A program made the position numbers and the translations under genes. Shown here piece after piece: positions 16,874-42,681 of a stretch of DNA of 64,000 nt (position 1 is its first letter; every line of letters starts with the position of its first letter). This DNA is from Candidatus Moraniibacteriota bacterium (lineage in GTDB: Bacteria > Patescibacteriota > Minisyncoccia > Moranbacterales > UBA1568). Location of the stretch: assembly GCA_030648835.1 (NCBI GenBank), contig JAUSGT010000002.1:12108-76107 (forward strand), written 5' to 3'. The notes under the pieces were generated by a model that saw nothing but the letters and a program-made list of their open reading frames with translations, ran no database searches and was not told the origin of the DNA.

Positions 16874-17626
16874 CTATTCAAGATTGTCCCACACCCGCTG
16901 GACGTCGGGATGATCGTTTATCTGCTCGAAGAAAGCATCGTACTGCTCGCGGGCTTTGGCGTCGAGGGCGACGGTCTGGATGGGACGATAGGAAAGCCCG
17001 GCAGATTTGACAGCGTAACCTTTTTCTTCCAGGACATCTTTCACTTTCTTCAGATTTTCGAAAGGGACGTAGAGGGCCAGGATATTTTCTTCGATATCTT
17101 CCGTATCTTCTGCCCCAGCATCGATAGCATCGAGTTCTGCGGTATCGCGGTCTTTTCCTGAATGATCGATGATGATTTCTCCGACTTGCTTGAAAAGGAA
17201 AGCTACCGAACCGATGGCGCCTATTTTCCCATTGGCTTTGGTGAAGAGGGATTTGATTTCGCTCACGGTGCGGTTGCGATTGTCGGTCGTGGTCTGGATG
17301 AGCATGGCGACATTGTCCGGCCCACCCGCCTTCGCAAGGCTACGGACGGGCAAGTACCCTTCGTAGAGAATGTCCTCGATAGTGGCACCATCCTTCAGTT
17401 CCCCGGTGCCGCGCTTGATGGCGCGATCGATATTGTCCTTGGGCATGTTGACGGTTCGCGCCTGGTCGATGGCGAGCCGGAGAGCGAAGTTCGTATCGGG
17501 ATTGCCCCCGCCGTGTTGTGCAGCCACGATAATATTGCGGCCGTATTTGGTGAATACGGCAGCGCGTTTGGCGTCATTAACGTCTTTTTGTCGATGAGTA
17601 GTAGCCCAATGAGAGTGTCCTGACAT
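16874..17626 (-). CDS. yebC: YebC/PmpR family DNA-binding regulator
   Basis: MSGHSHWATTHRQKDVNDAKRAAVFTKYGRNIIVAAQHGG is a near-consensus YebC N-terminus. 250 aa. Confidence 0.9.
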   Translation of the reverse strand: MSGHSHWATTHRQKDVNDAKRAAVFTKYGRNIIVAAQHGGGNPDTNFALRLAIDQARTVNMPKDNIDRAIKRGTGELKDGATIEDILYEGYLPVRSLAKAGGPDNVAMLIQTTTDNRNRTVSEIKSLFTKANGKIGAIGSVAFLFKQVGEIIIDHSGKDRDTAELDAIDAGAEDTEDIEENILALYVPFENLKKVKDVLEEKGYAVKSAGLSYRPIQTVALDAKAREQYDAFFEQINDHPDVQRVWDNLE

Positions 17627-17911
17627 ACTTGAAGAGGAATAGCGAATTTACCCTGTGTAATTGCTCACCATGTGAGCACCCGCGAAGCGGGATTACACTG
17701 GGTGAAGAATATAGAATAAAAAAAGCATGAAACTGAAGAAAATAGAGTATAGCGAATTTTGAAAAAGAAGCAAGCCCCGCACTAACTTTGCTTAATTTCT
17801 CTTAAATAAATACTAAGGATTACACACTCTCTTAATAACAGATAACATAAAGAACAAAAATAGTTTCTGATTGCGAAGCAAAGTTAGTGCGGGGCAAGAT
17901 TGGCCCGACGT

Positions 17912-39488: not shown

Positions 39489-39935
39489 TTATGCGAAAAG
39501 ATAAATAAGAATCAGTGTGAGAAAGAATCCAACGAGCGCTCCGCCGACGACTTCGCTCACACGATGACCGACCCGCTCTTTCAGGCGAGGGAACTTGCTT
39601 TCATCGATTTCTCCCTTGAGTTGGTCAACCAGCATATTGAGGTAGCGTCCCTGGTCGCCCAAGTACATCCGGATACGAGCGGCATCGTCGATGACCAGAA
39701 AGGAGAGCACTGCCGAGAGAGCAAAGGCAGCCGAATAGACTCCTTCGTAATACCCCATCGTGACCAGAAGCGAGATGACGAGAGCGGTATGGGCGCTCGG
39801 CATATGCCCGTGCGTGAAAGCATACTCCACACTCCAGCCATGTTTGATGGAGTAGAGAATAAATTTGATAATTTGGGTAATGATACCGACCGTGATCGGG
39901 ATAAGAAACACGAGGTAGGGCTGGAGAAAATCCAT
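39489..39935 (-). CDS. Divergent PAP2 family membrane protein (DUF212/YuiD-like)
   Basis: 148 aa with 3-4 TM helices. HGHMPSAHTA... resembles the acid-phosphatase/vanadium-haloperoxidase-related DUF212 motif. Confidence 0.6.
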   Translation of the reverse strand: MDFLQPYLVFLIPITVGIITQIIKFILYSIKHGWSVEYAFTHGHMPSAHTALVISLLVTMGYYEGVYSAAFALSAVLSFLVIDDAARIRMYLGDQGRYLNMLVDQLKGEIDESKFPRLKERVGHRVSEVVGGALVGFFLTLILIYLFA

Positions 39936-40111
39936 AAGATTAAAAGTTCTTAAAGTTTACCCTGTGAAATAATCCGCTTCGGCGGATTCCTGCAAAGCAG
40001 GATTTCACTGGGTGAATTATACCACCTTTTTCCTTTTCTGCCGGGGGCGGGCTTTTTCCCGGGGAATTTGCTATACTAGGGGACAAGTAATCAATAATAA
40101 ACAAGAAACAT

Positions 40112-40663
40112 ATGGGTTTAACTACCATTGTCCTCATTGTTGTCGGGGTGTTCGTAATTTATATAATTGCCATCTTCAACGGGTTGGTGCAATTGCGCAA
40201 TCGCGTTTCGGAAGCTTGGAGCGATATCGATGTGCAGCTCAAGCGTCGTTATGATCTCATCCCAAATCTCATCAATACGATAAAGGGATATGCGGCTCAT
40301 GAAACCGGTGTTTTCGAAAAAGTGACTGCCGCTCGCTCGGCCGCTATGCAGGCTGGTACGCCCGCCGGCAAAGCAGAAGCGGAAAATATGCTTTCGGGAG
40401 CGTTGAAATCACTGTTTGCCGTTTCTGAAGCCTATCCCGATCTCAAGGCCAACCAGAATTTTCTCGAACTCCAGCGTGAACTTTCCGATACGGAAAACAA
40501 GATTCAGGCCGCGCGCCGTTTCTACAACGGCAACGTGCTCGAGCTGAACAACAAGATTGATATGTTCCCGTCGAACATCATCGCGGGGATGTTTTCTTTC
40601 GCCAAGCGCGAGTTTTTTGAAGTAGCCGACGGAGAGAAAGAACCGGTGAAGGTAGAGTTCTAA
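40112..40663 (+). CDS. lemA: LemA family protein
   Basis: N-terminal TM. QLRNRVSEAWSDIDVQLKRRYDLIPNLINTIKGYAAHE is the LemA signature. Confidence 0.85.
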   Translation: MGLTTIVLIVVGVFVIYIIAIFNGLVQLRNRVSEAWSDIDVQLKRRYDLIPNLINTIKGYAAHETGVFEKVTAARSAAMQAGTPAGKAEAENMLSGALKSLFAVSEAYPDLKANQNFLELQRELSDTENKIQAARRFYNGNVLELNNKIDMFPSNIIAGMFSFAKREFFEVADGEKEPVKVEF

Positions 40664-40674
40664 ATGACAGAGCT

Positions 40675-42681
40675 ATGTCGTTTGCCGTGAAACAGTTTTT
40701 CCGAAAACAAAAAGTCCAAGTTTTGCTTGGGCTTTTGTTTACAGCGTTCTTTTTTAGTATTTCTCAAGTATCCGCTCAAGTCGCGCGGAATTACTCATAC
40801 GATGCGATAGATTACACTATACACGTCAATCAGGATACAACTGTCGATGTCACAGAAACCCAGACATATAATTTTATTGGTGAATACCATCAGGGTTGGC
40901 GCAATATTCCCAAAAAAGGGATTGATGATTTGACGGATGTTTCTGTCGTTGACAAGACAATAGGGAGATCGCTCACTTACTCCGCAACGCGTTTGGTAAA
41001 AACAGACCCCGCTAGTTGGGGTAAGTACACAACTTTTTTCGAGAATGGAGAATACATTATCGAGTGGTATTACAATGCCAGGGATACTACGAATACTTGG
41101 AAATTACGTTACAGACTTCATGGTGCTATTGGTTTTTACAAAGATCACGACGAATTGTATTGGAATTTATTTACGGCCTATCAGGTGCCTATTGGCAAAA
41201 TAGATGTTGATGTCATCTTGCCGAATATAGTTTCTGCCGATGATTTGAAAGAAACGCTCTATGTGAATAACTTGGTGCGAGGAAATCATAGCGCAACGCA
41301 CTCTGACGGGAACTTTCATTTTTTTGCCAATGATATTTTACCTGGTGGTATAGTAACCATCGCTCCCGGTTGGCCCAAGGGAATTGTGAATCAGGGTGCG
41401 TACTGGAGGTACTGGCTTGGAAAGTATTGGGGTTATGTCGGGGCTATTGCAATTGCTTTGGTGACAATTGTCACACTTATTTTGCGTTGGTATGTGACCG
41501 AGAGATATCATGCCGGACGCGGGCTAGTGATCCCAGAATACGAACCGCCGAAAAATCTGCCTCCGGCCATGGCGGATATTTTGGTTCATGAGAACCTCTC
41601 TTCCAAGGCTTGGGCGGCGACAGTGATTGATTTGGCTATTCGTGGCAACATTAAGATCGAAGAAAAAAAGAAGGGGAAGATTGAAATATTTTTTTCCGTT
41701 TTGGTTCAAGCCGTCCTGTGGATTTCATTGGGGGTTATGACCATCGTGGTTCTTCCATCTTTTTTCCAGGAAGATCCTTCATGGGAATCTCGTTTACTCC
41801 TGTCTCTTGTCACGCTAGTGATTTTTTCCCGGCCGTTACTATCGTTCTGGGGTGTACTTTCAGGGGAAACACCACCGAGTAGCTTTCTTTCTAGGACAGA
41901 CTATGTTTTGACAGAAATGAGTGATACCGCCAAAGGGGCCAGACCTCTTCAAGATTATGAAAAGGAGTTTCTCGGTATTATTTTTGGTTATTCCGGGCGG
42001 TTTGATACAAAAGATATGCGGAGTAATCCTACACAGGGTCAGGCACTATTCAAGGGTCTCCAGAAGCTTAAAAAAAATTTAGAAAAGGAAATAGCACAAG
42101 ATACGAATGCTTACGAAGTTGGATTCCGAGCATGGCGGATTTCAAAAATTGTTCTGGCAGTAACTGGCGGATTTATTATTTGGGGACTATTTGTTTTAGC
42201 TTCATTATCGAATTATCCACTCATAATTTTCTCAGTGGTAGCTGGTTATTGTCTTCTCGCTCTGATTCTTTTCTTTTGTTATAATCCGCGCCTCAATAAG
42301 CAAGGACAAATTCTCCGTGAAGAGTGGCTGGGGTTCAAGCTCTATCTCGAAACAGCCGAGAAAAATCGGATGCAGAATCTGACTCCGGAAATATTTGAGA
42401 AGTACCTCCCCTACGCCATTATTTTCGGGGTGGAGAAGAAATGGGGAAAAGCCTTTGAAAATATTTCTATGCCGCAACCGGCTTGGTATAGTGGAGCATC
42501 GATGGGAGTGGGGTCATCATTGCCCATGTCCTCCGGAGGGTTTTCCGCTTCTGCTTTCTCGTCCTCTTTCAGCTCTTCTTTTTCTTCTGCTTTTTCAAGC
42601 GCCGGTGGTGGCGGCGGAGCTTCAGGCGGTGGTGGGGGTGCTGGTGGCGGCGGTGGAGGAGGCGGCGGTGGAGCGAGCTAA
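40675..42681 (+). CDS. DUF2207 domain membrane protein (LemA partner) with Gly-rich C-terminal tail
   Basis: Signal/TM followed by a DUF2207 beta-rich ectodomain, multiple TMs, and a C-terminal (G)n tail GGGGGASGGGGGAGGGGGGGGGGAS. Canonical lemA-DUF2207 gene pair. Confidence 0.8.
   Translation: MSFAVKQFFRKQKVQVLLGLLFTAFFFSISQVSAQVARNYSYDAIDYTIHVNQDTTVDVTETQTYNFIGEYHQGWRNIPKKGIDDLTDVSVVDKTIGRSLTYSATRLVKTDPASWGKYTTFFENGEYIIEWYYNARDTTNTWKLRYRLHGAIGFYKDHDELYWNLFTAYQVPIGKIDVDVILPNIVSADDLKETLYVNNLVRGNHSATHSDGNFHFFANDILPGGIVTIAPGWPKGIVNQGAYWRYWLGKYWGYVGAIAIALVTIVTLILRWYVTERYHAGRGLVIPEYEPPKNLPPAMADILVHENLSSKAWAATVIDLAIRGNIKIEEKKKGKIEIFFSVLVQAVLWISLGVMTIVVLPSFFQEDPSWESRLLLSLVTLVIFSRPLLSFWGVLSGETPPSSFLSRTDYVLTEMSDTAKGARPLQDYEKEFLGIIFGYSGRFDTKDMRSNPTQGQALFKGLQKLKKNLEKEIAQDTNAYEVGFRAWRISKIVLAVTGGFIIWGLFVLASLSNYPLIIFSVVAGYCLLALILFFCYNPRLNKQGQILREEWLGFKLYLETAEKNRMQNLTPEIFEKYLPYAIIFGVEKKWGKAFENISMPQPAWYSGASMGVGSSLPMSSGGFSASAFSSSFSSSFSSAFSSAGGGGGASGGGGGAGGGGGGGGGGAS

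Follow-up and report, generated by a model that had tools for sequence, protein, structure and literature searches.

The RPE of Rickettsia are small palindromic selfish repeats, which lie in frame within unrelated housekeeping genes and add a conserved peptide to the encoded proteins (PMC10969869). REP/BIME sequences with their RAYT proteins (Y1 HUH) and REPINs are short extragenic palindromes that occur in many copies, sometimes paired, and are presumably processed in the form of folded single strands. Elements of the IS200/IS605 family and PATEs insert beside a specific tetranucleotide without generating a target site duplication (TSD) and carry hairpins near both ends. The target of IS608 is TTAC, that of IS605 is TTTAA. 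Here, we compare with these systems a palindromic element that occurs twice in a window of 64,000 nucleotides (the whole stretch of DNA analyzed) from a member of Candidatus Moranbacteria (Patescibacteria).

According to the initial annotation, a structured element at 39956-40016 of the plus strand (copy B) lies between a minus-strand PAP2-like gene (here DUF212, 'divergent PAP2') and the plus-strand lemA gene, and shares its arms and architecture, with compensated changes in the stems, with a second element at 17647-17706 (copy A). Letters and coordinates of copy B proved to be exactly as claimed, and its position as well as its relationship to copy A were confirmed (Table 1). Copy A is composed of TTTACCCTGTGTAAT-TGCTCACCATGTGAGCA-CCCGCGAAGCGGG-ATTACACTGGGTGAA. 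In both copies, 15-nt arms of the common form TTTACCCTGTG-N-AAT and ATT-N-CACTGGGTGAA enclose two hairpins and form an outer stem of 15 bp, which contains a T.G at pair 3 and a T.T at pair 8. Arm position 12 is changed on both sides (A-T in copy B versus T-A in copy A), and the second hairpins of the copies differ by one compensated change from C-G to T-A. RNAfold predicted a perfect three-way junction for both copies with energies of -31.6 (copy B) and -31.8 kcal/mol (copy A) and z-scores of -6.5 and -7.2, respectively; none of 200 shuffled sequences folded as well. The minus strands folded less well (-27.7 and -28.5 kcal/mol).

Table 1. Positions of the element copies, their parts and the adjacent genes in the window
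Feature	Coordinates	Strand	Remarks
Copy B, three-way-junction palindromic element, 61 nt	39956..40016	.	sequence, shuffles, RNAfold, covariance model
Copy B, 5' arm TTTACCCTGTGAAAT	39956..39970	+	pairs with 40002-40016; T.G pair 3, T.T pair 8
Copy B, inner hairpin 1, AATCCGC-TTCG-GCGGATT (AATCCGCTTCGGCGGATT)	39971..39988	+	
Copy B, inner hairpin 2, CCTGC-AAA-GCAGG (CCTGCAAAGCAGG)	39989..40001	+	
Copy B, 3' arm ATTTCACTGGGTGAA	40002..40016	+	
Copy A of the element, 60 nt	17647..17706	.	20 nt upstream of yebC
DUF212 / divergent PAP2 family gene, PF02681	39489..39935	-	start codon 20 nt from the element
lemA	40112..40663	+	divergently transcribed; orthologue carries PF04011
yebC	16874-17626	-	copy A 20 nt upstream
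Extended -10 box TGGTATAAT of the DUF212 gene	40016..40024	-	kept in relatives

The pattern TACCCTGTG-N25-55-CACTGGGTG matched the window twice, while 0.00 matches were expected from 100 shuffles. A covariance model (A3/R1), which had been built solely from seven copies of other organisms, detected only copies A and B when the 64 kb were scanned without filters (E ~1e-10; next best hit E >3). A chance origin of the resemblance between the two copies is excluded. Since they have only the arms and one hairpin in common, neither is a recent copy of the other. Rfam 15, applied to the whole window at the gathering threshold, revealed nothing beyond two tRNAs, and at E-values of up to 10 the region 39900-40080 gave only chance matches to miRNA-like hairpins, which were far below threshold. 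One of these sub-threshold matches (39947-40027) is due to the resemblance of the 5' arm UACCCUGU to the miR-10/mir-57 seed region; with 20 bits versus a gathering score of 44 it is a coincidence, which could nevertheless mislead automated annotation.

The lemA/DUF212 spacer harboring copy B has a length of 176 nt, and copy A is situated between a bPH_2 gene and yebC, both encoded on the minus strand. The initial annotation does not mention that each copy ends at a distance of exactly 20 nt from a minus-strand ATG, on its upstream side. The -10 box TGGTATAAT and copy B share one base, the last of both, at which the copy starts on the minus strand. A motif TG-n-TATAWT is conserved in the relatives L030, L033, L035 and also L039, which read TGGTATATT, TGGTATACT, TGTATAAT and TGCTATACT. 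Copy B separates the -10 box from the DUF212 start codon, so that the mRNA leader probably contains most of it. Judged by the position of the box, transcription of DUF212 should begin a few bases into copy B, which would then constitute most of this leader.

Copy B is preceded by GTTCTTAAAG, a short motif like those flanking other copies. Around copy A, an 11-nt direct repeat ATAGCGAATTT (17639-17649 and 17749-17759) flanks the element together with 42 nt downstream of it. The distal repeat lies, on the minus strand, within a promoter-like sequence TTCGCTATACT, and a similar sequence TTTGCTATACT is found in front of lemA at approximately 40067-40077. The ATAGCGAATTT sequence is either a promoter motif that recurs or the product of a local duplication. 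The DUF2207-family protein encoded 3' of lemA (40675-42681, plus strand) possesses a long Gly/Ser/Ala low-complexity tail (...SSAGGGGGASGGGGGAGGGGGGGGGGAS).

Loci of related Moranbacteria were inspected for presence of the element. Six of them (L030, L033, L035, L036, L037 and L039), whose DUF212 proteins are 78-87% identical to that of the window, have retained the divergent lemA/DUF212 pair and the promoter and lack the element; their spacers comprise 98-145 nt. Another relative with 96% identity (L038) contains the element with several substitutions, and its contig ends within the element, as expected for a repeat. In the yebC leader of the relative L271 an empty site ATATTC-TTCA-TTCC was found, where copy A reads ATATTC-TTCA[CCCAGTG...CACAGGGTAAA]-TTCGC on the minus strand. 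At the position of copy B, relatives read TATAtT-TCAc or TCAa, and the terminal TGAA of copy B (TTCA on the minus strand) was therefore probably already present in the target DNA. These readings suggest that the native tetranucleotide of copy B lies on the TGAA(+)/TTCA(-) side. The element has been gained and lost between relatives, and a function as regulator of the DUF212, lemA or yebC genes is not supported. Most likely, copy B is a tolerated passenger rather than a dedicated regulator.

The YebC protein of the window contains an insertion of ten residues (LPVRSLAKAG, 30 nt) after YEGY, which is missing in four relatives. The corresponding DNA TTGCCCGTCCGTAGCCTTGCGAAGGCGGGT (17324-17353, minus strand) comprises a mini-hairpin CCTT-GCG-AAGG between CCCGT and CGGGT, and may represent an element of the same kind that has decayed or lost part of its interior.

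To what extent the element occurs elsewhere was determined by pattern scans. A scan of one genome per GTDB species, in which 20 arm bases were fixed, yielded 28 loci, 21 of which showed the same architecture with unrelated inner hairpins. These 21 loci belong to Bacteroidota, Cloacimonadota, Bdellovibrionota, Saccharibacteria, Moranbacteria, Gracilibacteria, Parcubacteria, Elusimicrobia and Gammaproteobacteria. Two matches, L001 (938-1008) and L025 (3608-3678), from MAGs labeled Bacteriovoracaceae and delta proteobacterium, are orthologous loci inside a conserved ORF and do not have the two-hairpin interior; together with L005, L013, L024 and L026 they were treated as chance or convergent matches to the arm pattern. 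With a degenerate pattern, at least 120 loci were obtained from metagenomes, and at least 162 copies of 48-74 nt (median 61) were curated. Among 109 pattern matches on viral contigs only one was a true copy (L116), for which reason a phage origin was dismissed. A blastn search of plasmids (PLSDB) gave no match. Full-text searches of the literature for the arm sequences (in DNA and RNA spelling), the peptide motifs and the underlying concepts retrieved no relevant paper; the repeat family is apparently undescribed.

The family is characterized by conserved 11-nt arms, CCCTGT[G/T]NAAT ... ATTN[C/A]AC[A/T/G]GGG, each bordered on its outer side by a terminal tetranucleotide (TTYA or TRAA type). 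The commonest form among the curated copies is TTTACCCTGTTAAAT...ATTTAACAGGGTGAA, though the scans fixed parts of the arms, so that the apparent constancy of arms and TTTA partly reflects the search. In a small unbiased sample, consisting of second copies within loci, TTTA...TGAA was still the most frequent class; we counted it five times, TTCA...TGAA twice and TTTA...TAAA once, besides about five copies with one non-canonical terminal tetranucleotide. A sub-family CTYGCCCTGTG...CACAGGGCRAG (L255 252-309, L245 11768-11813, L269 3506-3552) has the same core and other outer bases. This sub-family suggests that the outer four positions lie outside the conserved mobile core. Some copies form tandem dimers with the junction ...GGGTGAA-CCCTGTG....

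The neighbors of the copies are unrelated housekeeping genes. All-against-all clustering of 1349 neighboring ORFs did not disclose any recurrent family beside the element; genes for GxxExxY proteins (PF13366) and 23S-IVS four-helix-bundle proteins were found near a few copies, not generally. The orientation relative to neighboring genes showed a weak bias (29 versus 17, by crude ORF calls). A number of copies (L022, L162, L189, L208, L220, L257, L158, L160, L266, L159 and L212) reside within short tandem motifs, examples of which are GTTTATAAAG/GTCTATAAAG, CGCAGATTA/ATCTGCG and GTTCAAAG/GTTCGAAG.

For the analysis of covariation, 150 hits of the model were aligned. Pairing was possible in 96.8% of the cells, compared to 77.5% in shuffles and 31-53% in slid controls, and double-sided changes were present in 706 cells versus 208 in shuffles. 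All 11 pairs of the inner hairpins covary. For the inner hairpins, including hairpin 1 of copy B, the structure is conserved across the family and the sequence is not. Within the arms of the curated copies, covariation was observed at pair 11, which is T-A in 95 and G-C in 62 cases, and at pair 12, which is A-T (123), G-C (23) or T-A (9); pair 8 is T-A (102), T.T (34) or T.G (19). Beyond 15 bp, no pairing into the flanks was detected. Relative to the arms, the interior is found either way round: the long hairpin is the first one in 40 copies and the second one in 48, and two copies of one MAG (L002 and L012) have identical arms and interiors that are exact reverse complements of each other. 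Covariation alone does not prove a folded functional form, since template-switch correction can compensate palindromes without selection. We also dropped the T.G wobble as proof of a plus-strand RNA, because one of the terminal tetranucleotides is target DNA and the native side may be at either end.

How the element inserts was deduced from three independent comparisons of filled and empty sites at the DNA level, none of which (0 of 3) revealed a target duplication. They comprise copy A and the empty site of L271 described above, the filled L181 and the empty L225 (CTG-TAAA-TGAGG), and the filled L236 and L165 compared with four empty paralogous units in L165 (GCAGA-TAAA-CTAT). In each case the empty site already holds four nucleotides identical to one end of the element, so that the net gain is the length of the element minus 4. 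In L165, L181 and the GxxExxY genes it is the TTTA side that carries the native tetranucleotide, in copy A, PGK, TopA and L239 it is the TGAA side; for copies within coding sequences the side was deduced by stop-codon logic. Direct repeats of at least 4 bp flank 15 of 155 copies, where about two would be expected, and are absent from the other 140. A fixed TSD was rejected, as the empty sites speak against it and the surplus of flanking repeats is found where the DNA is locally repetitive. The units in L165 belong to a separate repeat of about 130 nt (...AGCTCACCTGCAGAAACGCAAAATGCAGA-TAAA-CTATAAATT...), which recurs at least six times within 10.8 kb (around 1346, 2205, 5211, 5928, 8506 and 9957), one unit being filled and four being empty at the same TAAA.

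Nineteen copies lie within long ORFs, in either orientation, and the length of 18 of them is 1 mod 3. All coding copies are read in a single phase, which avoids the stop codons of the arms and yields x[Y/H]PVK...FNRV[K/N]. The interrupted genes include pgk, topA, murD, purD, a rmlD-like gene, rlmN, uvrC (two copies), a ppsA-like and a porB-like gene, and infB. The PGK with a 64-nt element is longer than solved PGKs by exactly 20 residues. In coding DNA, the element survives only in frame. In three genes for GxxExxY nucleases (PF13366) the motif is broken by a variant with a non-hairpin interior. Deletion in silico of 67 nt (CCC...TGAA), keeping TTTA, restored GFLESVYE and a full-length PF13366 match (1-116/117, 140 bits). 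With precise removal, the reading frames of GxxExxY and PGK are restored.

The GxxExxY (PD-(D/E)XK) loci, L017 (5404-5474), L221 (1160-1372) and L229 (2856-2961 and 4808-5507), contain one or two variants per gene with GTGTAAT arms and long non-hairpin interiors, the genes being otherwise intact. The 9 kb of L229 comprise six arm pairs. GxxExxY genes may be preferred targets, since their motif codons GTT TAT GAA contain TTTA|TGAA, or the insertions may be excised.

A different function of the two window copies was considered in the light of these data. If they were cis-regulatory RNAs (leader, attenuator, riboswitch-like or protein-binding mRNA structures) controlling DUF212 and yebC, the RNA would have to come from the minus strand, because both copies lie 20 nt upstream of a minus-strand ATG. 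The identical spacing from the start codon, the strong fold and the many family members that reside within 20 nt of a divergent gene start (by rough ORF calls) would fit such a role. However, orthologous leaders in relatives do not contain the element, by which this reading is largely refuted, neighboring genes are functionally unrelated, and copies occur inside coding sequences in both orientations. The minus-strand fold, moreover, is the weaker one and contains C.A and A.A mismatches, unpaired conserved nucleotides suitable for ligand binding are missing, and, apart from the chance hairpins mentioned above, there is no Rfam match even at E <10. We regard regulation by RNA as very unlikely. 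The initial annotation had also raised the idea of a bidirectional terminator or operator. A bidirectional intrinsic terminator or a mRNA-stabilising hairpin, the latter being a role proposed for REP sequences, would agree with the GC-rich structure that is stable on both strands, and several copies elsewhere do lie between convergent genes or just past stop codons. Yet neither copy has a T-run after the stem on either strand: copy B is followed by TTATACCACC (plus) and CTTTAAGAAC (minus), copy A by GAATATAG (plus) and TTCGCTAT (minus). A terminator scanner did not call the element itself and flagged only a weak neighboring site. Furthermore, the two divergent promoters that enclose copy B leave no transcript to be terminated there, copy A immediately precedes yebC and follows the upstream gene only after approximately 200 nt, and efficient termination inside essential genes would be lethal. 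A terminator function is, to a similarly high degree, improbable, and the suggestion of a terminator or operator was abandoned in view of the missing T-run, the orthologous spacers without the element and the in-frame copies in genes of many phyla.

The arms of the element, which are conserved in about 160 copies, look like terminal inverted repeats (TIRs) of 11-15 bp, as would be expected of an ordinary MITE, whose TIRs are cut as double-stranded DNA by a DDE transposase and which generates a fixed TSD. The surplus of flanking direct repeats (15 of 155 copies versus about two) and a gene for an IS5-family transposase in the element-rich locus L229 point in the same direction. On the other hand, the repeats sit in locally repetitive DNA, the IS5 element of L229 does not have similar ends, and all three comparisons of filled and empty sites, with which the coding-sequence cases agree, gave a net gain of length minus 4 without duplication. 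A divergence of the interior that preserves its structure would also be unexpected if only the TIRs were recognized. This makes a conventional MITE an improbable explanation, albeit not quite as improbable as the two preceding ones. Finally, if the inner hairpins were extruded, the arms TGTGAAAT|ATTTCACT would be joined and resemble TGTGA-N6-TCACA, reminiscent of a double-stranded DNA operator with CRP/FNR-like half-sites TGTGA ... TCAC, and copy B does lie within a divergent promoter region. But the most frequent form, the TGTTAAAT variant, does not contain TGTGA, so that the half-site is lost in most members, and the distribution of the copies and their absence from orthologous loci count against an operator just as against a regulatory RNA. 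The covariation of position 12 (A-T, T-A, G-C) indicates pairing and not base-specific reading. An operator can hardly be taken into account.

Compared with these alternatives, it is very probable that copy B arose by insertion of a mobile palindromic element that is small (about 48-74 nt), non-coding and non-autonomous. The element inserts without a TSD and has colonized intergenic as well as in-frame coding DNA of several phyla. The arms would act as recognition site for an enzyme provided in trans, and the hairpins would contribute the shape. Transfer probably takes place in the form of folded single-stranded DNA, in a peel-and-paste manner as with IS200/IS605 HUH transposases, and may involve a circular or hairpin intermediate closed by the four nucleotides TGAA or TAAA. 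The junction GGG-TGAA-CCC seen in tandem dimers is the one that would be expected of a circular intermediate. According to this model, the precise empty site of copy B would read AAAG-TGAA-TTAT or AAAGTTTA-TTAT, and circle junctions would read GGGTGAA-CCCTG or GGGTAAA-CCCAG.

By analogy to IS200/IS605 or RAYT, a trans-acting HUH-type transposase might move the folded single strand, but we consider this assignment rather doubtful. It is favored by the insertion adjacent to a tetranucleotide without duplication, the hairpins by both ends, the dimer junction and the strand-asymmetric mismatches, and disfavored by the inverted-repeat arms, the hairpin sequences that are not conserved, and the occurrence of both insertion polarities. 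As the native tetranucleotide can be at either end of the TTTA...TGAA asymmetry, a one-strand model requires that both strands are active. A phmmer search with sequences of IS608 TnpA and an E. coli RAYT as queries gave no match in 1.07 Mb of element-bearing loci, and no autonomous element or parent IS with the same ends was found in these loci (~1 Mb). The candidate enzyme may be a new or unexpected one, either of the HUH type working on both strands or a structure-specific nuclease/ligase of the host. Seen more broadly, the copies could represent a cross-phylum class of ~60-nt mobile elements whose folded strand forms a three-way junction closed by a 4-nt loop, which insert at TTYA/TRAA without duplication, are precisely excised, are recognized by the 11-bp stem and the hairpin shape, and lie in frame in essential genes of Patescibacteria with reduced genomes, the mobilizing enzyme not being encoded nearby; to this picture as a whole we attach somewhat less than even confidence.

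The results have some practical bearing. The annotation of the element as a conserved regulator of lemA, DUF212 or yebC, which would have been tempting but wrong, can be removed. Insertions add 16-22 residues (...YPVK...FNRVK...) to PGK, topoisomerase I, MurD, PurD, RlmN, UvrC and IF2 in minimal genomes, with consequences for gene calling, protein alignments, structure prediction and also for metagenome assembly, where contigs break at copies (e.g., L038). The nearly identical arms from Patescibacteria to Bacteroidota and Gammaproteobacteria imply either frequent transfer between phyla or a very widespread recognizing enzyme. An element that leaves no TSD and can be removed precisely would be a compact natural substrate for studies on structure-guided DNA insertion.

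With the RPE of Rickettsia the family has in common that no transposase is known, that insertions are both intergenic and in frame within genes, and that a conserved peptide is added. RPE, however, are about 100-150 bp long simple hairpins of apparently unrelated sequence and are restricted to Rickettsia and close relatives, whereas the present elements (48-74 nt, less than half the size of an RPE) form a three-way junction with near-identical arms and are spread over at least six phyla, the hosts being Patescibacteria, Bacteroidota and others. The likeness to REP/BIME and REPINs lies in the short, many-copy and sometimes paired palindromes outlined at the beginning. Neither the two window copies nor the family consensus contain the REP tag GTAG or CGTC, and REP families are species- or genus-specific simple hairpins that rarely lie inside genes, while the present family crosses phyla. 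Insertion next to a specific tetranucleotide without a TSD and hairpins near both ends are shared with IS200/IS605 and PATEs. The ends of IS200/IS605 elements are not inverted repeats, though, their hairpins are conserved in sequence, and the target tetranucleotide is always on the left side; in the present family the two arms form a common stem, the hairpins are freely variable and the native tetranucleotide can be at either end.

Integron attC sites, which are read as folded single strands, also combine conserved outer paired boxes and stem mismatches with a variable structured center, which may be branched. The RYYYAAC/GTTRRRY (R''/R') boxes are absent here, the arms reading TTTACCC...GGGTGAA, no cassette arrays or integrase genes are nearby, and unlike attC arrays the copies are single or paired beside housekeeping genes. 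The T-shaped ITRs of parvoviruses (AAV) resemble the element in having a conserved stem with two small palindromes and 'flip'/'flop' interiors. This likeness is structural only, as the copies are chromosomal and interspersed, have 60 instead of 125-145 nt, and no Rep gene was found. The closest systems are RPE and REP/BIME in behavior, IS200/IS605 in insertion geometry, and attC sites and parvoviral ITRs in shape.
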